Below, one piece after another: positions 21,181-49,177 of a DNA stretch of 64,000 nt (position 1 is its first letter; each line of letters starts with the position of its first letter). The stretch is from an uncultured Bacilli bacterium. GTDB lineage: Bacteria > Bacillota_I > Bacilli_A > RF39 > UBA660. The stretch lies in assembly GCA_934148845.1 (NCBI GenBank), contig CAKPDH010000003.1, positions 65,789 through 129,788 on the forward strand, read 5' to 3'. The notes under the pieces are model-generated. The model was not told where the DNA came from and ran no database searches. It worked only from the letters and a program-made list of their open reading frames with translations. The position numbers and the translations under genes were made by a program.

Positions 21181-21286
21181 AAAAGCTCCTTAATAAATAA
21201 TATGTTTTTCAAAAAAAATATAAGCTATTTTGATAGTGCTTTTATAAAATTAAAAATACTAACCAAAAAGATTAGTACTTTTATTA

Positions 21287-22047: not shown

Positions 22048-22193
22048 CTTATATAAGCATTATATGTAGAAACTAAATAACTAATTAATTAATATTATCA
22101 AGACTATATATTTTTACTAAGCTAAATACAAGTTAAAATATTTTAAATTCCATCAATATTATAGCAAAAGGACTATAAAATATTATAGTCTAG

Positions 22194-23696: not shown

Positions 23697-24111
23697 ATAA
23701 TCCTTCTTTCTACAATAATATTTTATCATAAAATATTATTATTATTTAAAAATAATTTATAAGTAATTAATTAAATTAAAATTGTGTAAATGTGTGTATA
23801 AATATAATTATAAACTGTAAATAATAATCTTATTTTTAATAATTATATTTAAATAATAGGAAAAGCTCAATTGAAAAAGTAAATTCCACTTTGTAAAGGT
23901 AAATTCTACTTTTGAATTGATAATTGAGAAAAAAAGAGTAAAAGTGGTAGATTTTTACTCTTTTTTGATATAAAATAGTCGCATAAGTCCCAAAATGACA
24001 TAAATTATTTCATGATTAAAAGAGGTCGAATAAATAAATTTTTTTTGAATTTCAAAATTCCATCCCTAGATTGAATAATTTAAGTTAATTGATGGTGCTT
24101 GTTTTATCAGT

Positions 24112-25203: not shown

Positions 25204-25439
25204 TCATATATTTTCTTATATATTCTTGAAAAAACTAAATATTACATGATATAATTATGAGTGTTAAAGGAGGAAGTAATAGTGAAAGCAAAAAAAGTTC
25301 TTATAAAAAAAATTCTAAATCGGATTGAAAAAGGGGAAGCATTAATATTCCCAGAAAAATATGTGAATGGGAAGAATGTGTAGTTACTGGGTCTTTAGGT
25401 ATATATCATGGATCAGATATAGATGACGCTTTAGAAATA

Positions 25440-25697
25440 ATGATAGCACTTAAAAATGGTGCAAGTATGGAAGAAGCAGCAAAATTGCTTGAGAAACAAA
25501 ATCATTCTGGATCAGGTTTTCATACAGTAAGAAGGATAATACTTGAATTTTCAAATAAAGGTCCTGAATTTTGGGAAGCAACTTCTCCTTATATAGAAAT
25601 GTCTTCAAGTGAGAAACAAATGTTAGAGGCAAAAAAACAAGAAAATGCACAACTTATACAAGCAAACAAGAAAAAAACAAGTGGACCCAAACTATAA
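25440..25697 (+). pseudogene. transposase-like HTH/leucine-zipper fragment (IS3-OrfA-like?)
   Basis: 85-aa ORF with an HTH-like segment and a Q/K/E-rich coiled coil (EKQMLEAKKQENAQLIQANKKK). Upstream out-of-frame pieces at 25324-25440 suggest decay. Confidence 0.3.
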
Positions 25698-25915
25698 TAA
25701 TTGAGTAATGTCATGCACGCTTTGCTCACTTGTGAGTTTAAGTATTGATAGGTTTTCTATTCCTTTTTGTTATGAAGTTCTAAAAGTAAAAACTTGACTT
25801 TATGACTTGCTAAAATTATGCTTAAAAGGGTTTAAAAAGGGAATTTCCCTTTTCACACCGTTATTGGCTTTGCCAATAGCGTAGTGTGTTACTAAAATGG
25901 AATTTTAGTTTTATT

Positions 25916-25940
25916 GGACGAGCTGTAGCTCGTTTTTTAA
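25916..25940 (+). terminator. intrinsic terminator-like hairpin
   Basis: ACGAGC-tgta-GCTCGT followed by TTTTTT. A second complex hairpin lies at 25855-25890. Confidence 0.4.
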
Positions 25941-26147
25941 TGTTAAAATCTCTATCATCATATTTATAATTTTTGCATATAAAAATTATTTATTTTTCCT
26001 TCTTTTGATATGCTATTTTCTATATTTTATAAATCAAAATCATCGTGTAATTACTTTACTTTCTTAAATAGCAAAAAAACTAGACGGTACTTCTAGATTA
26101 ATATTTTAAATAATGATAAAATTCATGTAGAGTTGGAGGATAAAGAT

Positions 26148-26651
26148 ATGGAATATTTAGATTTATATGATGTAAATAAAAATTTAACCGGAGAAAAAAT
26201 AGTTAGGGGTAAGGGAAAACCTCAAGTACCTGAAAATAATTATATTAATATTGTTATAATTTTTATGCAAAATAGTGAAGGTGAGTTTTTATTTCAAATA
26301 ACATCAAAAGAAAAAGGAAACGAAATAGCAACAACAGGAGGCCATGTTAAATCAGGACAAACTAGTTATGAGGCAATTCTTGCAGAAGTAGATGAAGAAT
26401 TAGGGTTAGATATTTCAAAAGAAGATATTAAAATGATAGATTCATATATTTTTGGTGTAGCTTTTATGGATGTTTATTATTTGAATAAAGATATAAACAT
26501 AAATGATTTAAAATTGCAAGATGATGAAGTAGAATCTGTAGAATGGCTTACTATAGATAGAATTAAAGAGTTAATCAATGAGGGAAAAGTAAGAAAAGGT
26601 AATATTAAAGCTTTTGATAGTATATTAGAATATCTTAATAATAATGTATAA
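26148..26651 (+). CDS. NUDIX hydrolase
   Basis: Nudix box GGHVKSGQTSYEAILAEVDEELGL. RBS GGAGGA lies 8 nt upstream of the ATG. Confidence 0.8.
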   Translation: MEYLDLYDVNKNLTGEKIVRGKGKPQVPENNYINIVIIFMQNSEGEFLFQITSKEKGNEIATTGGHVKSGQTSYEAILAEVDEELGLDISKEDIKMIDSYIFGVAFMDVYYLNKDININDLKLQDDEVESVEWLTIDRIKELINEGKVRKGNIKAFDSILEYLNNNV

Positions 26652-26819
26652 AAAAATATTAGTTTATAACTAATATTTTTTTACGCATAAGATATTATCT
26701 TACATATTTACTTGCAAATATTTTTAATTATAAGGGATTTAGGGATTATCCCTACATATAGAATTTGTGGGAGTACAAATTCATTGCTTGCTAGTCCACG
26801 ACTAGATAGAAAATTAGTA

Positions 26820-27020
26820 TTAATTTTCTACTTTTTCAGTATTATTTTCATCTGTATTTGATAACAAGAAATTATTTTTCTCGTTATATTTTTCTATTAT
26901 TTCATTTAATTTTTCTTCAAATGCTTCCATAACTAATTCTTCAAAAGTTGGACCATTTTCATCAAAAAATATATTCATTTTAAATTCATCTTTTCTCATT
27001 TTATCATTCCTTTCATTCAT
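26820..27020 (-). CDS. small acidic hypothetical protein
   Basis: 66 aa, immediately downstream of the resolvase fragment. Confidence 0.25.
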   Translation of the reverse strand: MNERNDKMRKDEFKMNIFFDENGPTFEELVMEAFEEKLNEIIEKYNEKNNFLLSNTDENNTEKVEN

Positions 27021-27366
27021 AAATTACATTTGTTTTAGGTATTAGTAATAGGTAATCTACAATATTACCATCTTGATTTAATGGGCATCCTATAATTCCA
27101 TCATAGTTATTTCTAGTTAGTCTATCAACTTTAATAGTCATTAAAACATCTAATTTCTTATGCTTAATATCTTCTAGTAATCTTTTCATTTGTGGTCTCA
27201 TTAAATCCTTACCAGAATGTCCAGCATCATTATAAACATCAATAATATCGTAATTATTCTTTTCACAATATTCTTTAATCATCCTAAGTTGTGAATCAAT
27301 AGAATATCCATTATCTCTTTGTTCGTCTGTACTTACTCTAACATATACACCAGTTCTTTTACTCAT
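27013..27366 (-). pseudogene. serine recombinase (resolvase) N-terminal catalytic-domain fragment
   Basis: MSKRTGVYVRVSTDEQRDNGYSIDSQ... carries the Ser-recombinase catalytic motif. Only ~100 aa of resolvase domain is present before unrelated sequence and a stop. Confidence 0.6.
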
Positions 27367-27385
27367 AAAATCATCTTCTACTATA

Positions 27386-27740
27386 TACCTCACTTAAAGC
27401 CTATTTGTTCGGGTAAAATTTAAAATTTTTTTGTTTTCTATATGTTTAGCATTTTAAACGCATTTTTTAGGGTATAAATTTATAAAAATTTCATCTTTCA
27501 CTTGTTTGGCACTTTAAAGGCATTTTTTTAACCCTTAAATTGTAAAAAAATTACATTTCTATATATAACCTCACTTAAATCAAGTTTTTTATCCCTAAAA
27601 ATTTATTCCCTCATTATATACCTCACTCAAATGCATTTTTTCAGACCAAAATTTAATATTTCTCATATGTTTGGCATTTTGTGATTAAAAAGTATAGTCT
27701 AAAAACACTATTCTTCATATATATTCCTCAATTAAAATTA
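27386..27740. repeat. degenerate ~100-bp tandem repeats (3-4 copies) between the resolvase remnant and tRNA-Leu
   Basis: Motif A (C)TATATACCTCACTTAAA appears at ~27386, ~27558, ~27614 and ~27719. Motif B TATGTTTAGCATTTTAAACGCATTTTTT and its variants appear at ~27437, ~27498 and ~27664. Confidence 0.5.
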
Positions 27741-28114
27741 AAAAGTTTAGTTTAATTTTTAAATTTTATTAATATTTCTTTAATTTCATTAAGGTTATAT
27801 TTTTGATTAAGTTCTTTAATATAAAAAGGTTTATTACTAATTTCATTTACTTTAATTCATAGATAGTAAGAGTAGTAGGGGAATTGATTATATATTCAGT
27901 AGGTTTTACAAATTTTAGGTTAGTATTAGTTAAATGTCTAATTTTTCCTTTTTTAATCGTGTAGTTATAATTTTCTATAAGTTCTAGTAATTCAGAATTG
28001 GGTTTTAATTCTTCTATAACTTTAAATTTAAGCATAAAAAATGTCCTACTTTCTAGAAAAGAGAACATAAAATAAAAACTTACGAAACCTATTGGTCCGT
28101 AAGTTGTTTTTAAA

Positions 28115-28201
28115 TGGTGCCTGTGATCGGACTCGAACCGATACGATATTGCTATCATTGGATTTTGAGTCCAACGCGTCTACCAATTTCACCACACAGG
28201 C
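28115..28201 (-). tRNA. tRNA-Leu (anticodon CAA), class II with long variable arm, encoded CCA
   Basis: The reverse complement folds as a cloverleaf. Acceptor GCCTGTG/CACAGGC. Anticodon stem TTGGA/TCCAA with loop CTCAAAA. T-arm ATCGG-TTCGAGT-CCGAT. 3' ACCA. Confidence 0.9.
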
Positions 28202-28815: not shown

Positions 28816-29515
28816 TCAAATCAATTCCTTTAATAATTATATTTTTAAAATTACTTTCCTGTTCTAGTATTATTTCATGCTTTTTAGTAAGAGATAATAT
28901 TGATAGAAAAGTAACTACTATATATCCTTTATTATATGTATCAAATAAATCAGTAAAATTTACTTGTTTTTTAATTTTTAATAAGTTTTTAATTTCATGA
29001 CTTCTAATTTTTACACTATATTCTTTATTGGTAATTTTAGTATCTAATGGTTTATTTAATTCTTTATTTTCCAATAAAGAATTAAATGCATTTACTAAAT
29101 CATTTAGACTAACTCCGTAATTAACAGTATCAAAATTATCTTTAAATTCAAGTAAATTACTAGCTTCTTTAGTATATACTTCTTTTCTATATTCTTCAAG
29201 TTCTCTAAATGTATTAGTAATATTTTTATATTCACTAAATTCTATTAATCTATTAATTAACTCTTCTTTAGGATCTTCTTTGGTATCTATATTTGGTAAA
29301 AGAGAAGATGATTTTATTTGAATTAATTCAGCTGCCATAACTAAATATTCACTAGCTATATCTAGATTTAATTGTTCCATTTTATTTATATAATCTAAAT
29401 ATCCTTTAGTAATATCATCTATACTAATATCGTATATACTTATATTACTTTTTTTTATTAAATGTAATAATAAGTCCATAGGACCTGTAAAATTATTAAT
29501 ATTTACTTCATACAT
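28799..29515 (-). CDS. scpA: segregation and condensation protein A
   Basis: ScpA N-terminus (FTGPMDLLLHLIKKSNISIYDISIDDIT..YL). It overlaps scpB, as in the canonical operon. Confidence 0.8.
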   Translation of the reverse strand: MYEVNINNFTGPMDLLLHLIKKSNISIYDISIDDITKGYLDYINKMEQLNLDIASEYLVMAAELIQIKSSSLLPNIDTKEDPKEELINRLIEFSEYKNITNTFRELEEYRKEVYTKEASNLLEFKDNFDTVNYGVSLNDLVNAFNSLLENKELNKPLDTKITNKEYSVKIRSHEIKNLLKIKKQVNFTDLFDTYNKGYIVVTFLSILSLTKKHEIILEQESNFKNIIIKGIDLNESSY

Positions 29516-29654
29516 AAGTATATACCTCCTTGTTAATTATAAATTATTTTATAAAATATGTAAAGTTTAAAAATAATTTTATAAATTCATTTAAAAAATC
29601 ATAAAAATAGTATATACTACTATTAGTAAGGTATTATATATCAATGGAGGTTTT

Positions 29655-32204
29655 ATGAAAAAAAGAATTATAGTGTTATTTCTAATTACTATGTTTATTT
29701 TTACTAATAAAGCTTTATGTGTTGAAATCATAAAAGAAGCGGGGTCTATAAAACTAGATGGTAGTTCACCTTGTGGAAAGAGTGCATGTGCTACTACATT
29801 AAATAGTTATGGAATAGGAGTAACCCTAATAAATAGTAATGGACAAATAGTAGGAAATAGAATTAACATATGGAATAATGAAACTACTAAAAGATATGCA
29901 AATATAAAAAAATATGGTCAAATTGGAAAAGATATAAATATAAATATAAATGAACTAGGAAAATATAAAGAAGCTCCTTGTACGGAAAATTATCTATATA
30001 ACAATATATCTGGAACAAATTATTTTAATTCAGATTTACTTACAAAATTAAGTGATAACTATAACTATTCAGAATATATAACAAATTTGAATGAAACAAA
30101 TGTAAAAACTATTTTAAAATATTTTGGAAAAAACATTGAAGATTCCTATAATTATTTTCTTAAAATAGAGCCTATATATTTTCTACATGAAAAATATTTT
30201 ACATATTGTAATTACTTTGTTGGTGATAATAATAATATGCTTAAGTATGCTAATGATTTAAAAGGTAAAGACAAAACTTTTTTATATTATTATTTGATAG
30301 GTGGGAACAATAAAACAATAGGTGGTGACTGGAATGTTTTTAGAAATAGACTGGTAAATCCAAGCTATTCTTGCCCAGGCTTAGGTGGCCTAAAAAATGT
30401 TGAATGCACAAATTTAACTTTAGCTAATTATACTGCAAGTAAAAAAAACGTAGAAGCTTTGTTTGACAACAGGGCAGGTTTAGGCGTAGGGTATGTTGCT
30501 ATTAAAGACTTTTTTAAATCTAAATTTAATATAGTAAAAAAAGATAATACGGGTGCTTTAGTGACAAATGCTACCTTTGATCTATATTTATATAATTATG
30601 AAGATAGATTATATAAAGAATTTAAAAAAAATTTAAAGACTACTTCTGGAAGATTTAGTGGTAATATTGATGTTACAGTAGGTAAGTATATGTTAGTTGA
30701 AAGAAGTGCAAAAGGATATGATTTAACTAAATCTAAATGTGAGGGATGTACTTCTTATGACTCTCCAAACTTTTATTTTGAAATAGATTCAACTACAACT
30801 ACAAAAACATTAACAATAACAAATGTAAAAACTTGTGTATCTGAATTTGATGATATAAGAAATGATAATAAAGGCATTGTATCTATGGAAAAAAGAATAA
30901 AACTTTATGATAAATATAAAGAAAGTGGTAAAAATTTTAATAAACTATTAGATATGAGTAATAAAACTGGAAGTAGTGCTTGTGGTAATGTAGACGATAA
31001 AAAAATAAAAGATACATATAAGTATAATTTATCTTGTTTCAATTTAAAACTAAATAACCAAATTCCATTTGATTCTAATAATTTAACTTATTATAGTGAA
31101 ATAGCTAACATAGAAGGAAAGGTGGCATATTGTCTAACTACACTTGATATAACAACATCAGGTGGAATATACGATAGTGTTACTTCAGGAAGACAAGTAA
31201 CATATGGATCAGCCCCACTTGCAACTGTTAGAAAAGTTTGCTATACATATAATATAAGTAATATGAACACAACAACAACGCAACCTGCAGATGATATTTC
31301 TAGCTATTTTCCACTAATATCTATGAAAAAATATATAAAAACATTTACTAATTCAAATTTAATAGAAAATTATGAATATATAAATAAGGTAAATGATAAG
31401 GTTAAATTTGTCCTTGAAAGTAGAAATGGAAATAGGTATGAATATGTAATGAAAGATCAATATGATTATAAAGATATAATATTGAATTATGGAACTGGAC
31501 AAGTTATAGATAAAGAGTGTGATAGTTACTGTCTAAATATTGGAAAAGGCATTATGAGTAGATTAACTGAAAAAGGATTGCAAACGATTAAATATCAAGT
31601 TAATTACAATTATTACATAAATGGAAAATTACAAAATAATATAGATAATAAGAATTGTAATTATACTGCTAATCCCGAAATAATAAATTCTAAACTTAAT
31701 TTACAGTTTGAACAAATAATGAATAAAAAACCATTTATGAATAAAGAAGGAACTAGTTTTAGAAATGTTAGTTATAATTGGTGGTCTAAAACTATAGATT
31801 ATAAAAATCTAAATGATTTAAATGGTGATGGAATAGTAGATGATTTAGATAAAATAATAAAAAAATATTCAAATAATAGGGAAGAATCTAAATCAGGTGA
31901 TCCTAAAGATAATTATTTAGTTGATTATGTCATGAATGGAAGAAATAATAGTTATAATTCAACTAAAGAGGGATATAGGTATAAAATAGTATTAACTCCA
32001 TCAGACATAAAAAAAATAAGAAAATATAATGATCGAGTAAACAATTATAATGACAATAATATATATTGTAATAATAATACTTGTTCAACTGAATTTATAG
32101 ATAACCTAAGAGAATCTAAAGTATGTTTTAAAAATATTTGCGATTCATTAAGCTTTAAACTAGATTATGCTAAACAAGTATATAATATAATAAATGAAAG
32201 TTAA
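29655..32204 (+). CDS. large secreted adhesin-like protein with Cna-B-type domain (paralogous to next gene)
   Basis: N-terminal signal peptide. One Cna-B-like module (GKYMLVERSAKGYDL). The C-terminal modules are shared with the 32312 protein: LNLQFEQ, DLNGDGIVDDLD Ca-loop, YLVDYVMNGRNNSY, LTPSDIKKIRKYND and CSTEFIDNL. No LPXTG motif. Confidence 0.6.
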   Translation: MKKRIIVLFLITMFIFTNKALCVEIIKEAGSIKLDGSSPCGKSACATTLNSYGIGVTLINSNGQIVGNRINIWNNETTKRYANIKKYGQIGKDINININELGKYKEAPCTENYLYNNISGTNYFNSDLLTKLSDNYNYSEYITNLNETNVKTILKYFGKNIEDSYNYFLKIEPIYFLHEKYFTYCNYFVGDNNNMLKYANDLKGKDKTFLYYYLIGGNNKTIGGDWNVFRNRLVNPSYSCPGLGGLKNVECTNLTLANYTASKKNVEALFDNRAGLGVGYVAIKDFFKSKFNIVKKDNTGALVTNATFDLYLYNYEDRLYKEFKKNLKTTSGRFSGNIDVTVGKYMLVERSAKGYDLTKSKCEGCTSYDSPNFYFEIDSTTTTKTLTITNVKTCVSEFDDIRNDNKGIVSMEKRIKLYDKYKESGKNFNKLLDMSNKTGSSACGNVDDKKIKDTYKYNLSCFNLKLNNQIPFDSNNLTYYSEIANIEGKVAYCLTTLDITTSGGIYDSVTSGRQVTYGSAPLATVRKVCYTYNISNMNTTTTQPADDISSYFPLISMKKYIKTFTNSNLIENYEYINKVNDKVKFVLESRNGNRYEYVMKDQYDYKDIILNYGTGQVIDKECDSYCLNIGKGIMSRLTEKGLQTIKYQVNYNYYINGKLQNNIDNKNCNYTANPEIINSKLNLQFEQIMNKKPFMNKEGTSFRNVSYNWWSKTIDYKNLNDLNGDGIVDDLDKIIKKYSNNREESKSGDPKDNYLVDYVMNGRNNSYNSTKEGYRYKIVLTPSDIKKIRKYNDRVNNYNDNNIYCNNNTCSTEFIDNLRESKVCFKNICDSLSFKLDYAKQVYNIINES

Positions 32205-32311
32205 GAATTCTAAAAAAATATAGAATTCTTTTTAATTTAATCAAAAAGTATTTAAATTAAATTAAATTTATTATATAATTAATATAAGTTTTAGAGTAGT
32301 ATGGAGGATTT

Positions 32312-35300
32312 ATGAAGAAAATTTTTATGATTATTGGCATATCAACAATTATAATATGTATGGTTATGATAAATGTTAGTAATGTAAATAGTGTCACAAC
32401 ATCAGACACATTTGAAGGAATAGGTTCATCGGGAGGTTCTCTTACTTCAAATCCTTGTGGCGAAAGTAGAACATGCATGAATCTTTTACCATATTTTGGA
32501 ATAAAGGTTACAATAGTTAAGAAAAATAATAATTCGCTTAAATCAATAACTAAACCTATTTATGTATGGAATAATGTTAATGAATCTAATGAATTAAATT
32601 ATGCTATAAAATTTATTGTTGAAAATAAATATGTATCTGACGATCCAGGAATTGCACAGTATCTTTATAAAGAATGTTACAACGCAAAAATAGTTGATAG
32701 TATCAAAGTAAGTAATTATATAAAAAAACACAGTATATCATCATCAGGACCTAATTATAATATTTTTAATTATAATGATACAAATTCAGATGATGAGAAA
32801 GCTCGAAATGTATCATCCTGGGATGAAATGAAATCCAAACTTTTAAATGGTAATTCGCATCTTCAAAGTCTTTTAAAAATTATAGCTGAAAATAAATTGT
32901 TTAATGATGGATATTCATTGGATTCTGTGGAAGGAATGTTAATTAAAATTGAACCAATAAATGTTTTTCAAGAAAAAAATGGTGAATCTTGTTTATTTTA
33001 TGTTGGTAGTATGGGAGATATTCATAGTGGCTACACTGGATCTGATTCAGTTCTTAACGATTTTTTTAGTCCAAAAGTAGGCTACTGGAGAGTTTATCAT
33101 AACAGAATAATTAGCTATTATGTTACGAATAGTGATTTTAATTCAATAGGTTATAATGGTATAACAGGATATGAGGGTGAAACAGGAATTGAAGACAATT
33201 ATTCAAAAGCAGTAGAAACATATAATAATAATGGTTATGCTAAAACAGGTCTAGGAGTTGCATATATAAAAATATCATCTCAGTACATACCAGGAAAACT
33301 TCAAATAAAGAAAATTGATGGTATTAATAATCCAATTGCTAATGTGCATTTTGATTTGTATAAAGGTCTTTGTACAGATGGTAAACTTATAAAACAAGAT
33401 ATAGTGACGTCAGGTGAAGGATTAGCTACTGTTGAAAATCTTGAGTCTGGTAAATATTGTATAAAAGAAACACAAGCTCCATATGGATATAAAAAGAGTG
33501 ATTTAGAAAAAATAGTGTATATAACTGCAGGCGAAACAAATAGCGTTGAGTTTAAAAATTTTAAATATCCAGCATTAAAAATCTATAAATATAAAGCTGG
33601 AACAAAGAAAGCTTTATCTGGTGCTGAATTTACGGTATATGCAGGTAATTGTGAAAATAAAGGTGCGAGAATAGACCGTGGTTCTACAAATGAAGATGGA
33701 TTTCTTCAATTTATGTTAAATAAGAGAGGAGCATACTGTGTTGAGGAAACACAAGCACCAAATAACTATATTAACAGCAATTCTTCAAAAAATGTTTATT
33801 TGAAATTTGGCGATGATATAACTTTAGAATTTGAAAATGAGTTAGACTGTAAAGGTGAATTTGAACAGGCAAAAGTTAATGGTGAGGTTTCAATGCAGGA
33901 TAGAATTAAAATATTTTGGGGAAAATATTCTATAGATGGTAAAGGTAGACGATATAATCAATTGTTAAATTTGACCAATAAAGATGCGACTTCTGCTTGT
34001 CAATATAAAAAACCAACGTACACACCCCAAATAACTTGCTTTAATTTTAAATATCCTTCAAATAGTGAATTTAATGCAAACAATCTTTCAAATTATAATG
34101 AACAATTTTTTAGTAATGATGGCTATATTAACTTTTGCTTAACTACTACGAATATATATACTGAAAAAAAATTACCTTCAGATAAAATAAAGGTAAAGGC
34201 CGGCATGATTGTTTTTGACGATAAACTTCAATTAAAGGTAGTTAAAACATGTTATAAATATCAATATGATAGTGCTTCTTCTGCTTCAAACTCAGGATTT
34301 AATTACACATTGAATGATGTATGGATTAACAAATATAGAACTTCATTTACTGAAAATATAATAAATAATGTTCGTATAAATAAATTAATTACTGATTATG
34401 AATATATTAATGAGGATAAAATAAATTATTTAAAAGATATACCTAACGGCTCAAAGTCTATAAGCGATAAAGATGAAAATAACAATTTAATTAAATCTGA
34501 AGATGATGGAAAAATAACTTATGAATATACGTATAAATATGAATATACTCCGATAAGTTTGTTGTATGGCTCTGGAAAGAATATTGCGAGTAAGGGTAAA
34601 TATTCAAACAATTTTAATGTACCGGGAATTATAAGTACATTTTCAGAGTCTGGATCTCAAATCATAAAATTTGGTGTGAAATATAAAGATTATACTGATA
34701 ATAAAGATATATACATAAATACAGAAGATGATGATGATAATTGCAAATATACTGTTGACCAAGCAATTATAACAGGATCTAATTTATTAAATCTACAGTT
34801 TGAACAAGTAAATTTAAAAAATCCATTTATAGAAAAAAATAATAATCCTACTACTGGTAATGTTACTATTAGAAAGGTAGGATCTAATTGGCGTTCAATT
34901 GATATTAATTCCTTTGATCTAAACGGTGATGGAGTTAGAAATGAAATAGATGAAGCAATAAAAAAATACGTTAATGATTTTATAAAGAATCCTTTAGCTA
35001 GTGAAAACGGAGATAACTATTTAGTTAAATATGTTATGAATGGTAGACCTAATAGTTATAGTAAGGATAAGCCTAAGTATGTAATAACGCTTACTCCATC
35101 TGATATTAAAGCTATTAGAAATTATAATGATTCTAATGATTATCAAGATTATGAAAAAGTTTATTGTACAGATTCTAATAATGTTTTGTGTTCAACGGAT
35201 TTCATTGATAATTTAAAAACTACTGATCCTAAGGTATGCGTAGGTGATACTTGTGAAAAGCTAAGCTCAGGTATTAATTTTAAAAGAGAAGTTACTGGTG

Positions 35301-36376
35301 GTAGTGATGTTAAAGATGCTTCATATATTAAGTTTTCTTTAAGTAATAGCGATTATGGTAAAATAGAAGGGGACATGAATATAGTTGTAAAAAAGGGAGA
35401 TAAGATAGAGTTTCCAGAGTTAAATATTAAGGAAGGTTATGGATTACTTGGTTGGATAACAAAAAATGAAAATAATAGATTTAACTACAATAATTATATA
35501 GATATATCAAATGTAACTGCTACTTTAGGTACTCAAGAGTATATGGCTGTACTTGCTAAAGAGCATAAAATATATAGAGAAACTGATGGTAATAATAGTT
35601 ATGTTTGTACGGTTTTGAGTAGAAAAAGTATGCAAGAAAGTGGTTGTCCAAGACTTGCTGACCCATCTAATGCATCTGGATTTGAAGGATGGAAATATAA
35701 TAATAGAGTTATAGATAATTATTATACGAGAAAATTTATTACTGATAATGATGATTTTATAATAACATTTACACCTAGTTATACACAAATTAAAATATAT
35801 GAAAGTATAGAGGTTGTAATGAATAATACAAAAATTAGATATTCTAAACGAGGTGTAGACATAGTAAGTAAGATTGATAAAATAATAGGAACATATTCTA
35901 TGAATGGTAAAATATTTAGTGAGCCAATAAATAAAAATCAATGTGAATATGATGGAGATGTTCACTCAACTAGATTAGGTAAAAATGCTTTTAGAGCAAG
36001 GTGCAAAAGAATATATTCTAAATATATAGACTATGAAATTGTAAAAGTTCCACTAGACTATATTGATACGAATAAAAATGCTTTAGGCGCTGGAATATTT
36101 ACTATATATACTAATTCAAATTATGAAAATGAAATTAGTGAGGCATATATAAAAGATAGTGAAAATAATACTCATAAATTTGAAAGGACTCATTTAGGCC
36201 TAAGAATAGACTTAAAAGAATTTGTGCCAGGAAAATATCCAGTTGGCGATTATTGGTTTGATTTAGTTTTTAAAGGAAAGAATGAAGACCTAATTACATG
36301 TAAGTTTAAAGTTACAAAGACTAAGCTAGGTTTAATTCCTAAAAGAGATGTAATTATATGTCCAGAATATCAATGA
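32312..36376 (+). CDS. giant secreted adhesin-like protein with two Cna-B-type domains
   Basis: Signal peptide. Tandem Cna-B motifs (SGKYCIKETQAPYGY, GAYCVEETQAPNNY). Same C-terminal shared modules (DLNGDGVRNEID, YLVKYVMNGRPNSY, LTPSDIKAIRNYND, CSTDFIDNL). 1354 aa. No LPXTG motif. Confidence 0.65.
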   Translation: MKKIFMIIGISTIIICMVMINVSNVNSVTTSDTFEGIGSSGGSLTSNPCGESRTCMNLLPYFGIKVTIVKKNNNSLKSITKPIYVWNNVNESNELNYAIKFIVENKYVSDDPGIAQYLYKECYNAKIVDSIKVSNYIKKHSISSSGPNYNIFNYNDTNSDDEKARNVSSWDEMKSKLLNGNSHLQSLLKIIAENKLFNDGYSLDSVEGMLIKIEPINVFQEKNGESCLFYVGSMGDIHSGYTGSDSVLNDFFSPKVGYWRVYHNRIISYYVTNSDFNSIGYNGITGYEGETGIEDNYSKAVETYNNNGYAKTGLGVAYIKISSQYIPGKLQIKKIDGINNPIANVHFDLYKGLCTDGKLIKQDIVTSGEGLATVENLESGKYCIKETQAPYGYKKSDLEKIVYITAGETNSVEFKNFKYPALKIYKYKAGTKKALSGAEFTVYAGNCENKGARIDRGSTNEDGFLQFMLNKRGAYCVEETQAPNNYINSNSSKNVYLKFGDDITLEFENELDCKGEFEQAKVNGEVSMQDRIKIFWGKYSIDGKGRRYNQLLNLTNKDATSACQYKKPTYTPQITCFNFKYPSNSEFNANNLSNYNEQFFSNDGYINFCLTTTNIYTEKKLPSDKIKVKAGMIVFDDKLQLKVVKTCYKYQYDSASSASNSGFNYTLNDVWINKYRTSFTENIINNVRINKLITDYEYINEDKINYLKDIPNGSKSISDKDENNNLIKSEDDGKITYEYTYKYEYTPISLLYGSGKNIASKGKYSNNFNVPGIISTFSESGSQIIKFGVKYKDYTDNKDIYINTEDDDDNCKYTVDQAIITGSNLLNLQFEQVNLKNPFIEKNNNPTTGNVTIRKVGSNWRSIDINSFDLNGDGVRNEIDEAIKKYVNDFIKNPLASENGDNYLVKYVMNGRPNSYSKDKPKYVITLTPSDIKAIRNYNDSNDYQDYEKVYCTDSNNVLCSTDFIDNLKTTDPKVCVGDTCEKLSSGINFKREVTGGSDVKDASYIKFSLSNSDYGKIEGDMNIVVKKGDKIEFPELNIKEGYGLLGWITKNENNRFNYNNYIDISNVTATLGTQEYMAVLAKEHKIYRETDGNNSYVCTVLSRKSMQESGCPRLADPSNASGFEGWKYNNRVIDNYYTRKFITDNDDFIITFTPSYTQIKIYESIEVVMNNTKIRYSKRGVDIVSKIDKIIGTYSMNGKIFSEPINKNQCEYDGDVHSTRLGKNAFRARCKRIYSKYIDYEIVKVPLDYIDTNKNALGAGIFTIYTNSNYENEISEAYIKDSENNTHKFERTHLGLRIDLKEFVPGKYPVGDYWFDLVFKGKNEDLITCKFKVTKTKLGLIPKRDVIICPEYQ

Positions 36377-36384
36377 ATTCTTAA

Positions 36385-36420
36385 TTAATTGGAGTACTAA
36401 TACATTAGTATTCCTTTTTT
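36385..36420 (+). terminator. weak intrinsic terminator
   Basis: GGAGTACTAA-taca-TTAGTATTCC imperfect stem followed by TTTTTTT. Confidence 0.4.
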
Positions 36421-36461
36421 TATTTATTTATTGTATAATTATATAGAATAGGAGTGGTTTT

Positions 36462-38015
36462 ATGATACTAAGAAAACCGTATGCATTTTTTATTAAAATG
36501 TTTAAACCAATTCACTTAATATTGAGTGCTTTACTTATTTATAGTATATATCTTGAAAATAAGCTATTGGGAATTTTTAATAATTATATTAATACTGATA
36601 TACTTAGTATAGAAAATTCTTATATAGTAAATAATGGTATATATATAATACCTATTATAGTTATAGTAGCTTCTATTATAATGCTTACTATTATGCATCA
36701 AAAAAATAAACCATATAAATTTTATTTTATTACTATAATATCACTTATATTTGTTATTGTAGTTAATTCATATTCTGTTAATGTAATAAAATTAATGACT
36801 GAGAACATTCTTCCTGTTAGAACAGTTAAAATGGTACATGATTTAATGTTTATAAATATTGTTATAGATATTGTTCTTATAGTACTATTTATAATAAGAG
36901 GTCTTGGAATTAATATTAGAAAATTTGATTTTTCATCTGATTTGTCTAAGATGGATATAAGTGATAAAGATAAAGAAGAGTATGAAGTATCACTTAATAT
37001 TAATTATGATGAAACTAAAAAGAAAAGAAAGAGATTTTTTAGAAATTTTAAATATTTCTATTTTGAACACAAATTTATATGTAATATAACTATTTTATTT
37101 ATATTAATAATTGTCGTATCTATAACATTTATAACTATTAATAATAGAATATATAAAGTAAAGGAATCTACTGTACAGGAATTAAATGGTCTTACATTTA
37201 AAGTAAATAAATCTATGTTTGTAGATACTAATACTAAAGGTAAAAAATTTCTAAGTGATAGTGTATTAGTAGTTGTAGATATTAATTTAAAAAGTAACTA
37301 TAGCAGTAAAGTATTTTCAAAAGACTTTAATTTAAATATAGAAGGTAAAAAGTTCTATCCAACTGATAGTTATTCTAATGAATTATTTGATTTGGGTAAA
37401 ATATTTACTGATGAAAATATAAAAAATACATATACTAAATATCTATTAGCGTTTGAAATACCTCTAAAATATAAAGATAGTAAAATTAAATTTAATTATG
37501 TAAGCTTAGGTAAAAAGGTTATGGTTAATCTAAATCCTACTTTAATTAATAATAATTCTAAAAAATTTAATTATAATATTTCTGATAAACTAGAATTTAA
37601 GGATTCTCTTTCTTCTGTAAGATTAAAAATAAATAGCTATGAAATTATAGATAAATATAAAATAGATTATAAATATTGTTATCAAAATGATTGTATTGAT
37701 TCATCTGAGTATATAAAACCATCTTATGATAAAAATTATGATAAAACTATGCTTAAAATTAATTATGAATTTAGTAGTGATTCAAGTATTAATATAGATG
37801 ATTTAATAAATAAAACTAGTTATATAGAATATTACATAAATAATGAAATATTTTATGATTATGATTTAGAAATTATTTATAGTAATAAAAAGAAGTTTAC
37901 TGATACTATTTTTATAGGTGTTAATAATAAAGTTAAAGATGCAACTTATATTAGCTTAAATTTTGAAGTTAGAAATACAATTTATAAGTATATAATAAAG
38001 GAGGCTAAATCATGA
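36462..38015 (+). CDS. polytopic membrane protein with large extracytoplasmic C-terminal domain
   Basis: ~5 TM helices in the first 220 aa. An Asn/Tyr-rich C-terminal domain follows. Confidence 0.4.
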   Translation: MILRKPYAFFIKMFKPIHLILSALLIYSIYLENKLLGIFNNYINTDILSIENSYIVNNGIYIIPIIVIVASIIMLTIMHQKNKPYKFYFITIISLIFVIVVNSYSVNVIKLMTENILPVRTVKMVHDLMFINIVIDIVLIVLFIIRGLGINIRKFDFSSDLSKMDISDKDKEEYEVSLNINYDETKKKRKRFFRNFKYFYFEHKFICNITILFILIIVVSITFITINNRIYKVKESTVQELNGLTFKVNKSMFVDTNTKGKKFLSDSVLVVVDINLKSNYSSKVFSKDFNLNIEGKKFYPTDSYSNELFDLGKIFTDENIKNTYTKYLLAFEIPLKYKDSKIKFNYVSLGKKVMVNLNPTLINNNSKKFNYNISDKLEFKDSLSSVRLKINSYEIIDKYKIDYKYCYQNDCIDSSEYIKPSYDKNYDKTMLKINYEFSSDSSINIDDLINKTSYIEYYINNEIFYDYDLEIIYSNKKKFTDTIFIGVNNKVKDATYISLNFEVRNTIYKYIIKEAKS

Positions 38016-38662
38016 AGAAAATTGCTTTATTTATTATAAGTATTTTTATATTTACAAATTTAGTAAGCGCTAGGTGTACTAATAGTGATATAGCCAAATT
38101 AAAAAAATACGCTAATAATATTAATTTATCATATAATTTTTATTATGATTTAAATAATCCTATGTTTAGTATAACTGTTAATAATATAATACCTGATATA
38201 TATATTGTTGATTCAAGAGATGATATTAAGTATACATATTTAAATACTAGTAATGGTGAAATTACTATATATAACTATAGACCTAATTATGATTCTGGAA
38301 AATACACAATTTATTCTAATAAAAATGAATGTGTTGGATATAAAGTAGGGGTTAAGTATTATAAATTTCCAAAATATAATTTCTATTATGATACAAAGTA
38401 TTGTGAGGGTTATAAAAATTTAAAAATATGTAATAGATTTTATGATACATCAAATTATACATCGGATCAAGTAAAGAAAATAATAGAAGATTATAATAAA
38501 GAAGATAATAAGGAAGATGAAATTAAATATGTAAATAAAAGCTTTTTAGATACAATAATTGAATTTTATGTGCATAATTATATAATACTTTTAGTAAGCA
38601 TTATAACAATATGTTTATTAATTATATTTATTGAGCGTAAAAGAGATAAATTTAGATTATAA
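38012..38662 (+). CDS. secreted protein with C-terminal TM anchor
   Basis: Signal peptide, a Cys-containing domain and a C-terminal hydrophobic helix. The start overlaps the previous stop (ATGA). Confidence 0.4.
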   Translation: MKKIALFIISIFIFTNLVSARCTNSDIAKLKKYANNINLSYNFYYDLNNPMFSITVNNIIPDIYIVDSRDDIKYTYLNTSNGEITIYNYRPNYDSGKYTIYSNKNECVGYKVGVKYYKFPKYNFYYDTKYCEGYKNLKICNRFYDTSNYTSDQVKKIIEDYNKEDNKEDEIKYVNKSFLDTIIEFYVHNYIILLVSIITICLLIIFIERKRDKFRL

Positions 38663-38720: not shown

Positions 38721-39122
38721 GTGAGAGAATCAGTATGGGGGTATGCAGTAATAGTACTTGGAGTACTGGCAATTATGATTATATGGTTTTTTGGTAATAA
38801 TACTAAAATAGATCAACATAATTATAATTTACTTAAAGAAACAGTAGAAAGTGCTATGTATGATTCGATTGATTTATCAGCTTATAGGGATAAAGGCGTT
38901 GTAAAGATAATTGAAGCAAAATTTATAGAAAATTTTATAAGAAGATTTGCTGAAAATGCAGATTTATCTAATACATATGTAATAGAAATATATGATGTGC
39001 TTGAAGCTCCACCTAAAGTAAGTTTAGTTGTTAAAAGTGCTAATGAGACAACTGCTACAGGTGAAATAGTTAAATTTAATATGGTAAATAATATAGACGC
39101 AGTATTAGAGACTACGTATTGA
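38721..39122 (+). CDS. TadE-like/pseudopilin-like protein
   Basis: N-terminus MRESVWG|YAVIVLGVLAIMIIWFF has a short charged leader ending in Gly and then a hydrophobic helix, which is the prepilin-like class III signal layout. It sits first in the Tad module. Confidence 0.45.
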   Translation: MRESVWGYAVIVLGVLAIMIIWFFGNNTKIDQHNYNLLKETVESAMYDSIDLSAYRDKGVVKIIEAKFIENFIRRFAENADLSNTYVIEIYDVLEAPPKVSLVVKSANETTATGEIVKFNMVNNIDAVLETTY

Positions 39123-39139
39123 GAGGAGAATAAAGAGAT

Positions 39140-40015
39140 ATGAATAATTTTGTTATAGGGTTAAAAAGATTTGTTACAAATAAAAATGTTGTTACTATTG
39201 TACTTGTTTTAGTAGCTCTTGGTTTATTATTTTGGGGGTATACTTCTACATTAAAGAAACAAACAAATCCAGTAAACTTACCAGTAGCGGCTACTACAAT
39301 AAGTGCTAGAACTAAATTAACTAATGAAAATATTAAATATGTTAAAGTTGCAAGTAGTATGATTAGTTCTAATGTTATTAGATCATCACAATCTTTAATT
39401 GATAAGTATGTAAATATTAATGTAACAGTTCCTGAGGGAAGCCCTTTTTATAAAGAATGGGTAGTAGAAGAAAAGGATGTTCCAGGTAACTGGGTTGAAC
39501 AATTAGATCGTAAAAAAGGTGAATTAGGTTACTATATGAGTGTTGATATGAACTCAACACTAGGAAATTCAGTATTACCTAATTCATATATAGATATATA
39601 CATGAAAGCTACTGATGAAAATGGTGTCATAATGTTTGGTAAACTTATGGAAAACATTAAAGTATTAGTAGTTCATGATGGTAGTGGAAAAAATGTATTT
39701 GATAATGTTAATTCTATTGGTACAGCATCAAAAATTGGATTTGCTGTAAGCCAAGATTTATATATATTATTAAAGAAAGCAAATTATCTTGGAATTGATC
39801 TTCAATTAGTGCCTCGTGGTAGTACAGTTCCAGATAATGATTATATTATTGTAAAAAGTTCTACATTAAGAGATTATATTGATGCACAAACAATTACAGT
39901 AGAAGAAGATTTAACTGCTGATGATATGAAGAACAATACTGATAATACAGAAAATAATACTGACAATAATACTAATACTAATACTAATACAAATAACGAA
40001 GCAAATAATCAGTAA
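39140..40015 (+). CDS. cpaB: Flp pilus assembly protein CpaB/RcpC-like
   Basis: N-terminal TM. SAF-like region (PVNLPVAATTISARTKLTNENIKYV). CpaB-type C-terminal region. Confidence 0.6.
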   Translation: MNNFVIGLKRFVTNKNVVTIVLVLVALGLLFWGYTSTLKKQTNPVNLPVAATTISARTKLTNENIKYVKVASSMISSNVIRSSQSLIDKYVNINVTVPEGSPFYKEWVVEEKDVPGNWVEQLDRKKGELGYYMSVDMNSTLGNSVLPNSYIDIYMKATDENGVIMFGKLMENIKVLVVHDGSGKNVFDNVNSIGTASKIGFAVSQDLYILLKKANYLGIDLQLVPRGSTVPDNDYIIVKSSTLRDYIDAQTITVEEDLTADDMKNNTDNTENNTDNNTNTNTNTNNEANNQ

Positions 40016-40043
40016 ATAAATAGAATAAAAAGGGTATGATAAT

Positions 40044-41228
40044 ATGCAGGATAGTATATTTGAAGGAATGGATTTTGGCCCTTTAACAGAATACTTGAAT
40101 AATGATGATATTACTGATATTTCGTATAGTAATAATGGACAAGTATGGTTAAAGACATTATCTAAGGGGATATTTAGAGTTGATAATCCGGCTATAAATA
40201 ATGCATTTATGGAAAAGCTTGCCTTTCAATGTTCAAATGTAATGGGTAAAAGTTTTAATGCAGCCCATCCGTTCCTAGACAGTGAAAGTGCGGAATTACG
40301 TATGAATTTTGTACATGATTCTATAGCAAAAAATGGTATAGCCTGCGTTATACGTAAAACCCCAGCAAAAATTAGACTTGAAAAGAAAAAAATATTAAAA
40401 GAAAAGTATGTAACTGAAGATATACTTGATATGTTAATAACTTGTGTTCATGGACATTGTAATATAATTGTTTGTGGAGAAACAGGTAGTGGTAAAACAG
40501 AATTTGTTAAATATCTTGCTTCAAATACATATGAAAATGAAAAAATAATAACAATAGAAGATACATTAGAGCTTCACTTAGACAAAATATATCCAAATAG
40601 AGATATTGTAGCTATGAAAACTAATAACATAGCAAGTTATTCTGATGTACTTGTAACTTGTATGAGACAAAATCCTAAATGGATTTTATTATCAGAAGTA
40701 CGTAGTGCAGAAGCTGTTATGGCTGTTAGAAACTCAATTTCATCAGGACATTATATTTTATCTACAATACACGCAGATAAGGCTTCTTCAATACCTAATC
40801 GTATGTATAGTTTACTTGAAACTAATCAGGATATAGAACAATTTTTAAAATCTATTTATAGATATATCCAAATTGGTGTATATATAAGAGGATATATGAG
40901 TAAAGAAGAAAAAAGATTTGTAAGAGAAATTGCAGAAGTTACTGAGTTTTATGTAACTGAAGATAATGAGGCTAAATATAATACTATTTATAAAAAAACT
41001 CCAGATGGAGTTGTGTATAGGAGAAATCCAAGCAAATACTTAATTGAATATCTAGAAGCTCAAGGAGTTAAACTACCTAATAATTTTATTAGGGAAGATT
41101 TACCAAATCCTGGTGATGAAGCTAAAAAAGAAAGCATGGATGACTATATGCGTGATATAAGTAGTAATCAAGTATTAGAAAAAAATACTACTAATAATAA
41201 AAAAAATGATGAAATTATATTTGGATAG
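40044..41228 (+). CDS. tadA: Tad/Flp secretion ATPase (TadA/CpaF; GspE/VirB11 superfamily)
   Basis: Walker A CGETGSGKT. Asp box ILLSEVR. His box STIHA. 394 aa, consistent with CpaF rather than VirB11. Flanked by CpaB-like and TadB/TadC-like genes. Confidence 0.85.
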   Translation: MQDSIFEGMDFGPLTEYLNNDDITDISYSNNGQVWLKTLSKGIFRVDNPAINNAFMEKLAFQCSNVMGKSFNAAHPFLDSESAELRMNFVHDSIAKNGIACVIRKTPAKIRLEKKKILKEKYVTEDILDMLITCVHGHCNIIVCGETGSGKTEFVKYLASNTYENEKIITIEDTLELHLDKIYPNRDIVAMKTNNIASYSDVLVTCMRQNPKWILLSEVRSAEAVMAVRNSISSGHYILSTIHADKASSIPNRMYSLLETNQDIEQFLKSIYRYIQIGVYIRGYMSKEEKRFVREIAEVTEFYVTEDNEAKYNTIYKKTPDGVVYRRNPSKYLIEYLEAQGVKLPNNFIREDLPNPGDEAKKESMDDYMRDISSNQVLEKNTTNNKKNDEIIFG

Positions 41229-41240
41229 GAGGTATAAATT

Positions 41241-42143
41241 ATGAATACTGTTTTACTTTTTGTAATTGTATCTGCAATACTTATATTTGTAATTATATAT
41301 AGAAGTAGTGCAGGAACTGAAACTTATGAGTTTGTAAAAACTCAAGGTAGAAGACTATATAGTAAAGTTTCTCCATATACTTATAAAGAAATAAAGAAGA
41401 AAATAAGAGAAATGAAACAGGATTATACTGTTCAACAATATATTTTACACATTGTTATATTTGCAATAGGCGCAGGAGGTATAACTTATTTGTACTTTTA
41501 TAGCATAATTATTTCAATAATATATGCTTTAATAGCAGTAGCGCTTGTACCTTATATTAACTATTTAAGATGTAAAAGAATATATAGTGAATTTATTTTT
41601 GAACAAATCCAAGTATATACTACTAATACCATTATGGAATTTGCAACTACTCAAAGCTTTGTAAAAGCTCTTGAGGGTGTTAATTCATCAGGAGTATTAG
41701 AAGATCCATTAAAACATGATGTTCAGGTAATGATTGATATGGCTTATGAAAATGGTACAATAAATCAATCACTTGAATATATGAATTCTAAATATGATTT
41801 TTATATGGTAAGAAACATGCATCAACTATTTTTACAAATTACTAATGAGGGTTCTAAAGATGCTAGTGATTCACTTGAAAATATGTCAAATGATATAGAT
41901 ACACTTGTTGAAGGAGTGTATAGGGATAGAATCGATAGGGAAGCATTTTATAAAAAATTTCTTAGATTTGGATTAATACTTTACTTAATGATAGGTGTAA
42001 TACAACTTATGTTAGGTGAAACATATCAAGTAATGCTTAAACTATGGTATGCTCAGCTTTTATTACATATTATCGTAATAGTAAATACATTTTTCTTAAT
42101 GTCTGGAACCAAATTTTATAATGAGAATGTAGGTGCCGAATGA
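41241..42143 (+). CDS. tadB: TadB-like membrane protein (GspF-domain)
   Basis: N-terminal TM, cytoplasmic helical domain and C-terminal TMs, in the typical position after the ATPase. Confidence 0.6.
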   Translation: MNTVLLFVIVSAILIFVIIYRSSAGTETYEFVKTQGRRLYSKVSPYTYKEIKKKIREMKQDYTVQQYILHIVIFAIGAGGITYLYFYSIIISIIYALIAVALVPYINYLRCKRIYSEFIFEQIQVYTTNTIMEFATTQSFVKALEGVNSSGVLEDPLKHDVQVMIDMAYENGTINQSLEYMNSKYDFYMVRNMHQLFLQITNEGSKDASDSLENMSNDIDTLVEGVYRDRIDREAFYKKFLRFGLILYLMIGVIQLMLGETYQVMLKLWYAQLLLHIIVIVNTFFLMSGTKFYNENVGAE

Positions 42144-42940
42144 GTATCTGGTTTTATGTACTTATCGCTGCAATTTTTATATTTGTAGTATGTTATAATA
42201 ATATTATTAATGTAAAAACTATAATAACTCAAGTAAATCCTATCTTACTTAAGTTTATGGAAAAAGACTATGAATTTTTATTAAGAGTAAAATATGGTGA
42301 AGCAGAATATGATATAAATTATTTATTTGGAATACGAATAAGAAATGGTATTATAACTAGTGCTGCTTTAATTCTTTTATTAATAGCAGCAGGCTATATG
42401 AGCTATATATTTGTTTTAGCATCATTAATTGCAGGCTTTCTGGCATTTAAAAGTAGTTATTTTACATTAAAAAATTATTACAAAGTAAGACTAAATTATA
42501 TAAGCTCTATGTTACCATATTTCTTGAAAAGCTTAGAAATATTAGTACAACATTATACAGTACCAGTAGCTTTATCAAGAAGTATTGATACCGCGCCAGA
42601 AATATTTAGACCAGGATTAAAACGTTTAGTAGCAAAAATAGACTCAGGTGATTCATCAATACAACCATATGTTGACTTTGCTAATGAATATCCTGTTAGA
42701 GATTCTATGAGAATGATGAGATTATTATATCGTTTAGGACTTGGTACTAATCAAGATAAACATGAGCAAATAATGATGTTTTCAAGAACAGTATCATCAC
42801 TTCAAAATAAAGCAAGAGAAATAAAATATAAAAATAGACTTGAATCTTTTGAAAAAAGAACAATGGTTATGTTATTTGTAACAGGTGGTGGAGTATTACT
42901 TGTATTATTCCTATCAATGACACTAATGATGCAAATATAA
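42140..42940 (+). CDS. tadC: TadC-like membrane protein (GspF-domain)
   Basis: Same topology class as tadB. Start overlaps the previous stop (ATGA coupling). Confidence 0.55.
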   Translation: MSIWFYVLIAAIFIFVVCYNNIINVKTIITQVNPILLKFMEKDYEFLLRVKYGEAEYDINYLFGIRIRNGIITSAALILLLIAAGYMSYIFVLASLIAGFLAFKSSYFTLKNYYKVRLNYISSMLPYFLKSLEILVQHYTVPVALSRSIDTAPEIFRPGLKRLVAKIDSGDSSIQPYVDFANEYPVRDSMRMMRLLYRLGLGTNQDKHEQIMMFSRTVSSLQNKAREIKYKNRLESFEKRTMVMLFVTGGGVLLVLFLSMTLMMQI

Positions 42941-44989: not shown

Positions 44990-45027
44990 AGCTTCAATAT
45001 TTTGAAGCTTTTCTAATAGGTGGTAAA

Positions 45028-49161: not shown

Positions 49162-49177
49162 ATTAAGGAGGATAAAG

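Follow-up and report, generated by a model that had tools for sequence, protein, structure and literature searches.

Two adjacent genes, here called A and B, occupy positions 29655..32204 and 32312..36376 (both on the + strand) of a 64,000-nucleotide stretch of DNA from an uncultured Bacilli bacterium (contig CAKPDH010000003.1; the whole stretch is referred to below as the window). Their products of 849 and 1354 amino acids (aa) belong to a large family without annotation, found in uncultured gut Bacilli of low GC content, whose members are Sec-exported and rich in cysteine. In this family, a conserved C-terminal part, the base, is preceded by a variable N-terminal part, the head, and the genes lie in front of a cluster resembling type IV filament and type IV secretion system (T4SS) genes. 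In two conspecific strains, the head of A or of B has been replaced as a block. Judging from the sequences, there is about an even chance that A and B are contact or adhesion proteins with exchangeable heads, which would be held on the cell non-covalently, through the base, by the downstream machine or by the neighbouring membrane proteins p216 and TM517.

Genes A and B encode colinear, modular and exported proteins

Both open reading frames (ORFs) are intact at exactly these coordinates under genetic code table 11, in a window of about 24% G+C, and an alternative genetic code was dropped from consideration for that reason. An earlier note, made from this DNA without database searches, had described the products as two giant paralogous adhesin-like proteins. 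The paralogy was borne out by BLASTP, in which A aligns colinearly with B along its whole length (33% identity over 665 aa, E 5e-59); the N-terminal domains also align separately (24% identity, E 7e-12), and the C-terminal cassette alone reaches 49% identity (E 2.7e-37). "Giant" overstates 849 and 1354 aa, and the proteins are better called large. The shared motifs quoted in that note are all present and stand at homologous positions, namely LNLQFEQ at A681/B826, DLNGDG at A721/B869, LTPSDIK at A780/B927 and CST at A810/B960.

Protein A consists of a signal-peptide-like N-terminus, a head domain (aa 24–288, 29724..30518; this and all features of A and B below are on the + strand), a degenerate SpaA-like remnant and the conserved base (aa 385–849, 30807..32201), in which profile matches and an AlphaFold2 model delineate a helical stretch, a beta-sandwich region and a helical C-terminal cassette. 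The cassette of A, running from LNLQFEQ to CSTEFIDNL, was delimited by the motif positions to aa 681–822 (31695..32120; cassette profile E 1.4e-37). In B, the signal-peptide-like N-terminus and the N-domain are followed by two SpaA/prealbumin-like (Cna-B-type) domains (aa 326–418 and 420–511 by iterative-search envelopes, 33287..33844), the base, and a B-specific extension of 376 aa (aa 979–1354, 35246..36373), the base envelope ending at aa 978. The cassette of B (aa 826–975, 34787..35236), placed by its motifs and by a Dockerin_1 score, holds a calcium-loop-like element and an internal NPTTG. Thus, the description of the shared cassette as C-terminal holds for A and not for B, where 376 aa more come after it.

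Cna-B-type motifs had been claimed for both proteins. The claim stands for B, which contains GKYCIKETQAPYGY and two copies of PF17802 (E 1.6e-27, 96 bits against a gathering cut-off of 23.1), and fails for A, in which SpaA_2 scored 13.3 bits (E 0.13, cut-off 25) and the iterative search gave no match. Since aa 289–390 of A align to the second SpaA domain of B in BLASTP, this segment is probably a degenerate SpaA remnant. The SpaH/EbpB pilin model of NCBIfam gave 43.9 bits on B and did not reach its cut-off of 95, and the extension of B showed a weak match to the Listeria-Bacteroides repeat (Flg_new, E 0.0024) below the cut-off. The Pfam, NCBIfam and PHROGs scans of A and B returned nothing beyond SpaA in B, and a hidden Markov model (HMM) scan of the window found the base, the cassette and the N-domain confined to A and B.

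Both N-termini show a charged stretch followed by a hydrophobic one, the pattern of a Sec signal peptide, as the earlier note had stated. Lipoprotein anchoring was rejected, as no canonical lipobox precedes a Cys in either N-terminus on reading the sequences. Inspection also agreed with the note that neither protein has an LPXTG-type motif with a hydrophobic, charged tail; the NPTTG of B (aa 845–849, 34844-34858) is not followed by a membrane tail and is therefore not a canonical sorting signal, and it could be a chance occurrence or an internal processing site. These observations support the description of A and B as secreted, anchor-less, adhesin-like modular proteins. One homolog of A (P0001) is 98% identical to it, and human gut metagenomes contain exact copies of A.

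Heads are replaced between conspecific strains

Two conspecific strains, represented by loci L021 and L023, are 98–99% identical to the window across the locus apart from clean replacements, and the context of the locus is the same in both as in the window. On blastn comparison, L021 is 99.5% identical up to position 29667, has no match over 29668-30803 and is 98.2% identical from 30804 onwards, that is, the segment encoding aa 5–383 of A (29668..30803) is replaced (allele P0002). In L023, the identity is 98.5% up to 32323, no match is found over 32324-33955 and identity is 98.7% from 33956, so that in this strain the segment encoding aa 5–548 of B (32324..33955) is replaced (allele P0003). 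The borders of the replacements are sharp: each begins immediately behind the start codon and extends to where the base starts, and identity resumes at or just inside that point. As the exchanges are clean and lie inside otherwise 98–99% identical loci, we concluded that the heads are exchangeable cassettes on a constant base.

The base defines a large family without annotation

An exhaustive HMMER search with a profile of the central and C-terminal region retrieved 827 relatives at E<=1e-3 and 213 at E<=1e-30, counted as cluster representatives. A word-indexed homolog search gave just five to six relatives, and the family is visible only by the exhaustive search. The clusters examined are all named "hypothetical protein" and nothing else, and no Pfam, NCBIfam or PHROG model matched the base or the cassette. 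The scores of A (E 1.7e-152) and B (E 9e-150) on the base profile are circular, both proteins being part of the profile, and independent support for the family is given instead by the 827 relatives and by the synteny described below. According to the earlier note, its reading would weaken if the shared modules were generic domains without specific association; this proved not to be so, as no library model fits them and in the window only A and B carry them.

The base, about 420 aa long, forms the very C-terminus of 145 of 154 members, and more than 100 aa follow it in just nine of the 154, B among them. A signal-like N-terminus was recognized in 139 of 152 members, while a C-terminal membrane or LPXTG-type tail was found in none (0/152). 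The segment ahead of the base is variable, with a median length of 377 aa, and contains no SpaA-like domain in 61, one in 65, two in 18, three in eight and four in two of 154 members; the type of N-domain present in A and B was detectable in 35 of 156 members after three HMM iterations with HMM-trimmed N-domains. The cassette is the most conserved block of a 14-sequence alignment, the variants of locus L011 included, and the motifs F-R-x-I-D-x-x-N-P-F-P, R-x-x-G-x-N-W and N-S-Y are among the conserved residues of the base. A and B show the features that define the family: a full-length match to the base profile in their C-terminal part, an N-terminus of Sec type, the lack of an anchor, and genes placed ahead of those for TM517, p216, DUF5411 and the ATPase. 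A tblastn search with the base found no match among the PLSDB plasmids and INPHARED phages, and a link to known Clostridial conjugative plasmids was dropped for want of a PLSDB match.

The base was modelled with AlphaFold2 from aa 385–849 of A and a 110-sequence alignment (model mf91a9144ca70). It is predicted to fold as one confident unit (pLDDT 79.5, pTM 0.69), with helices at model residues 10–70, a beta-rich part at 73–290 and then the loop-rich helical cassette, which contains the helix of the calcium loop and a Cys-bracketed hairpin. The head model (aa 24–290 of A, 25 sequences, mf60736413227; pLDDT 72.3, pTM 0.76) is mixed alpha/beta. Foldseek matched neither model to the PDB at E<=0.001, the TM scores being very low and the best PDB match of the head having an E of 0.68, and the base model found no match in BFVD at E<=0.001; the head thus shows no known fold. 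No enzyme or toxin family matched the heads, and beyond a Cys pair, E-P, N and G no conserved residues of catalytic type were seen in them.

The family leads a fixed gene cluster of T4SS and filament type

The order of genes around the family is conserved: scpB and scpA, both on the minus strand, come first, then between one and three family paralogs, TM517 (about 520 aa), p216 (about 220 aa) and DUF5411, followed by a CpaB-like gene, a T2SSE-family ATPase, two TadB/C-like genes, small pilin-like genes and a gene for a 332-aa protein, and then by VirB2-like pilins, VirB6-like, PrgI/VirB3, VirB4, cell-wall hydrolases and VirD4. This order was seen in the window and in the sampled loci with enough flank (L001/2, L007, L009, L017, L020 and L021-24), which come from metagenome-assembled genomes labelled uncultured Bacilli, several of them divergent, from rabbit, mouse and Hadza human guts. 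The linkage of A and B to pilus or T4SS genes, which the earlier note had assumed, is therefore found with the same synteny in every interpretable sampled locus. Variants exist as well. In L010 and L018/19, one paralog lies beyond scpBA, on the other side. In L011, TM517 is absent and three paralogs alternate one-to-one with p216 homologs (2240-2896 and 6706-7422) directly upstream of DUF5411 and the ATPase; this alternation suggests that p216 and the family protein may form a cognate pair.

In the window, the polytopic membrane protein encoded by TM517 (36462..38015, +) has a large extracytoplasmic part and matches no family, and its gene is the conserved immediate neighbour of the family. 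In the product of p216 (38012..38662, +), a signal peptide and an ectodomain of about 165 aa that contains Cys residues precede a C-terminal membrane anchor. Neither gave a meaningful match in searches of PDB sequences, and both are candidate membrane partners of the family. Like the family, both evolve fast: across loci, TM517 proteins are 37–40% and p216 proteins 31–43% identical, family members of other species are 24–37% identical to those of the window, and in the base only, and the core machine proteins and ScpA/B of other species share 57–90% and 57–69% identity, respectively, with the window. Paralogs of one locus are 39–65% identical and always closer to each other than to the proteins of other loci, a pattern that indicates repeated duplication or gene conversion.

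The core of the machine, identified with Pfam and NCBIfam, comprises DUF5411, the CpaB-like gene, a VirB11/TadA-like ATPase and the two genes for TadB/C-like membrane proteins (38721..42940, +). The ATPase (in the 40044-42940 region) scored best to VirB11 (115 bits) and then to the TrbB and TadA models, and for this reason "Tad-like" is kept as a loose label; no curated pilus model matched the two TadB/C-like membrane proteins or an 83-aa pilin-like gene. Instead of a classical Tad pilus, the filament module at 40044-42940 may therefore represent an unusual accessory of the T4SS.

Several further observations concern this cluster and its surroundings. VirB4 scores best to the Mycoplasma type of integrative and conjugative element (ICE) and is apparently split in two overlapping ORFs of 181 and 594 aa (53556-55876), which cover positions 108-276 and 296-891 (347.7 bits), respectively, of the Mycoplasma-ICE model NF045975. 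Three divergent VirB2-like T4SS_pilin paralogs (165, 139 and 128 aa) lie at 48664-51160, with an unannotated 369-aa gene between the second and the third, and resemble the T4SS pilin arrays of Patescibacteria (PMC12102498). No relaxase was seen in the window. At 43460-46602, a 509-aa protein with an NPNTG motif, a hydrophobic segment, an RRRSK tail and a near-threshold CBM_X2 domain is encoded ahead of a class B sortase (TIGR03064, 154.7 bits); this sortase/substrate pair is inserted in this species only, being present in the conspecific L023 and absent from L001, L009, L011 and L020. Upstream of the locus, about 11.5 kb (~16700-28200) separate the BacA and 203-aa genes from scpB, genes that are adjacent in L009, L010 and L019 and about 4 kb apart in L020. 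This interval looks like a mosaic of inserted material, and it contains genes for a 657-aa unknown protein, a collagen-repeat protein (19251-20087) and a phosphoglycerate mutase, a transposase-like ORF and a truncated serine recombinase (27013-27393).

The dockerin-like loop is an optional insertion in the base

The earlier note had also recognized a dockerin- or EF-hand-like calcium (Ca) loop in the cassette. The pattern D-x-N-x-D-G-x-x-[DN]-x-x-D occurs once per protein, at the homologous site, as DLNGDGIVDDLD in A (aa 721–732, 31815..31850) and DLNGDGVRNEID in B (aa 869–880, 34916..34951), and it was matched in 0.4% (A) and 0.7% (B) of shuffled sequences. Ligand positions 1, 3, 5, 9 and 12 are all acidic or amide in both, and in the base model a helix (aa 730–739) directly follows the loop of A. 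Excised loop segments scored 14.5 (A) and 18.0 bits (B) on Dockerin_1 (PF00404), below the cut-off of 22.9, full-length A and B gave no dockerin match at E<=1 in Pfam, and each has one repeat, not the two tandem repeats of a dockerin. The recognition was thus correct in that a canonical 12-residue Ca-loop with its helix is present, and it went too far in that the element amounts to a half-dockerin below the Pfam threshold.

In the 14-sequence alignment, the loop sits in an insertion between the motifs R-x-x-G-x-N-W and N-S-Y, which is absent from L008, both L009 paralogs and all three L011 paralogs. In two relatives, complete dockerins with two repeats are inserted at this point (P0004, 34.8 bits; L007, 23.1 bits). 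Of 123 relatives that possess the anchor motif, 97 lack a loop there, 16 have one, nine have two and one has three, that is, 26 (about 21%) bear one to three loops. As the insertion is present in only about 21% of the relatives, the loop cannot be the general anchor of the family. The DLNGDG element is an optional insert derived from dockerin, reduced to one Ca-loop and helix in A and B, and it is most likely a structural site in the base, where it would bind calcium, rather than a cohesin-binding module. The proposal of the earlier note that the proteins are attached through their shared C-terminal part consequently survives in a changed form: the conserved base is the best anchoring candidate, and the role of shared anchoring device has to be withdrawn from the loop, an optional insert that is a single sub-threshold repeat in A and B, with no cohesin-like domain found among the cluster proteins scanned.

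Proposed function and alternative explanations

We infer a contact or adhesion role from the combination of export without an anchor, a constant base, a swappable head on SpaA-type stalks, the fixed position at the front of the cluster and the co-varying membrane neighbours. The C-terminal base would hold the protein non-covalently on the cell, its attachment site being the downstream type-IV-filament/T4SS-like machine or its fast-evolving membrane partners, TM517 and p216. Backed by up to four SpaA-type stalk domains or by none, the variable head would make contact with the target, whether another cell, host material or a surface, and recombination exchanges heads between strains. Several observations weigh against this proposal. 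A terminator-like hairpin with a 10-bp stem and a T-tract (36391..36424, +) lies in the 85-nt gap between B and TM517 and is the sole such site in 29400-36600, about one being expected by chance in a region of this size (7.2 kb); on account of it, co-transcription with the machine is not assured, and A and B may be transcribed separately. The housekeeping genes RlmD, BacA and scpAB are equally conserved in order, and in small, syntenic genomes the synteny could partly reflect inheritance and not function. In L008, a family member lies on an 11.6-kb contig without recognizable machine genes. Moreover, the "Tad-like" designation is loose for the reasons given above.

One alternative is a different attachment, in which A and B would be bound to the wall or envelope as S-layer-like proteins or wall adhesins, the base binding a wall polymer independently of the machine and the synteny being a matter of inheritance. 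Sec-type export, the richness in Cys and the lack of a covalent anchor are compatible with it, as are the terminator-like site between B and TM517, the equally syntenic flanking housekeeping genes and the paralog beyond scpAB in L018/19 and L010. Nevertheless, Pfam and NCBIfam detected no SLH, CWB2, LysM, SH3b, GW or choline-binding match, family paralogs and p216 homologs are interleaved in L011 just ahead of DUF5411 and the ATPase, and the neighbours TM517 and p216, like the family, evolve fast, so we regard wall binding as unlikely. Distinctly unlikely is, in our judgement, that A and B are released effectors, toxins or other exoproteins with an N-terminal activity, whose base would serve secretion or entry into target cells. 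Replacement at one end between strains together with lineage-specific duplication does resemble polymorphic effector loci, no anchor is present, and the T4SS cluster has a coupling protein and no relaxase in the window. However, the N-termini are of classical Sec type, and the T4SS is thus not needed for export; SpaA stalk domains are typical of surface-displayed proteins, and matches to enzyme or toxin families are lacking for the heads. Polymorphic toxins usually carry their variable part at the C-terminus, with an immunity gene after it, while here the variable part is N-terminal and no immunity gene follows.

Two further possibilities keep the proteins on the cell by other means. The loop could be a working dockerin or EF-hand, anchoring A and B by Ca-dependent attachment to a partner of cohesin type, located on the cell, the pilus or the T4SS. 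The complete set of Ca-ligand positions, the helix after the loop, and the above-cut-off two-repeat dockerins of P0004 and L007 at the same site speak for it, and the base profile found only weak matches among PDB sequences (E 0.04–0.3), all of them dockerins. This explanation is nonetheless improbable, as dockerins need two repeats and A and B have a single one scoring 14.5 and 18.0 bits against 22.9, the insert is missing from about 79% of the relatives, although these share the locus and likewise lack an anchor, the scanned proteins of the cluster showed no cohesin-like domain, and the sortase-anchored 509-aa protein, a possible scaffold, is absent from the loci of the members with full dockerins. 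That the class B sortase cuts B at its internal NPTTG, linking the N-terminal 848 residues to the wall, is scarcely credible. The motif is of the NPxTG type, like that of the adjacent substrate with its NPNTG and membrane tail, and it belongs to a loop that is inserted into the conserved cassette in B only and is retained in the P0003 allele; yet no hydrophobic segment or charged tail follows it, A and nearly all relatives are devoid of such a motif, the sortase pair is present only in this species, and five residues of this kind can occur by chance in an N/T-rich protein.

Relation to known systems

A and B fail the tests for the defining features of PilY1, PrgB, LPXTG proteins and dockerins. 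They share with type I dockerins (PF00404) the 12-residue D-x-N-x-D-G-x-x-D/N-x-x-D loop and the helix, and differ in that the loop is embedded in another domain instead of forming a terminal module and is absent from most of the family. PilY1/PilC are large Sec-exported non-pilins that are encoded with filament genes and are not known to have a covalent anchor; they attach to the filament by a conserved C-domain that bears an EF-hand-like Ca site, and their N-terminal part is strain-variable. The layout of A and B is alike in functional terms, a comparison that draws on general knowledge of these adhesins and not on sequence similarity. There is no homology: the C-domain of PilY1 is a beta-propeller, whereas the base of A and B is modelled as helices, a beta-sandwich and a helical cassette, Pfam found no PilY1-type beta-propeller in A or B, and the base model matched no PDB fold at E<0.01. 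In addition, the host of A and B is a monoderm, and the machine is of VirB11/TadA type with a VirB4/VirD4 cluster. PrgB and the LPXTG MSCRAMM proteins and pilins resemble A and B in being encoded with a monoderm T4SS, in their modularity, in the SpaA/Cna-B stalks (of B) and in a presumed contact role. In contrast to them, none of the 152 family members has a sorting signal, heads and base are unrelated to the known adhesin domains, and A and B lack the LPXTG anchor of a PrgB-type protein as well as, in Pfam and NCBIfam, any adhesin-domain match such as its glucan-binding-type polymer adhesin domain would give.

A predicted, uncharacterized secretion operon of Roseburia, Ruminococcus and Eubacterium comprises CpaF, PilC/GspF, DUF5411 and an internalin-B-like protein (Miller et al., 2022; PMC9523054). 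Its combination of DUF5411, a CpaF-family ATPase, membrane platform proteins and an adjacent putative adhesion protein is also found in our locus, and the weak Listeria-Bacteroides repeat in the extension of B is of a kind found in internalins. Unlike our locus, that operon belongs to Clostridia, has eight to nine genes and was not described with VirB4/VirD4 or with the family of A and B. Chromosomal, relaxase-less T4SSs with arrays of VirB2-like pilins have been described in Patescibacteria (PMC12102498), and the present cluster shares with them a chromosomally fixed T4SS of monoderm type, several VirB2-like genes and a reduced-genome uncultured host. No adhesins were reported in the Patescibacteria dataset, while here a variable family leads the cluster, and the phylum is another one.

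In its boldest form, the proposal would make the family the specificity-determining contact protein of a chromosomally fixed, non-conjugative hybrid of T4SS and type IV filament in Mollicutes-related reduced-genome gut Bacilli. It would dock by a new base fold on p216 and TM517, head swaps would retarget the machine to other partner cells or host ligands, and it would be a monoderm equivalent both of tip adhesins of the PilY1 type and of the systems for host contact that have been proposed in Patescibacteria. We offer this extended version as a speculation that is rather unlikely to hold as a whole.

Implications

Proteins of the general kind of A and B, that is, non-covalently displayed adhesins tied to a surface machine, are known, and it is the family with a base and swappable heads that was previously unannotated. 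It comprises over 800 sequence clusters that lack annotation and show, as far as tested, no known fold, and the presence of a dockerin-like loop in some of its members does not imply cellulosome-style anchoring. Small-genome, uncultured low-GC Bacilli are common residents of the gut, and little is known of how they interact with their surroundings. In these bacteria, the family combines a conserved base with an exchangeable head, allele replacement being visible between strains from human gut samples, and it has a fixed genomic partnership with a machine of T4SS/pilus type. If the base is a docking module, it would provide an experimental handle on this machine and a marker for the system in metagenomes, and the alleles of the head would be candidates for determinants of strain-level specificity toward the host or partner cells.

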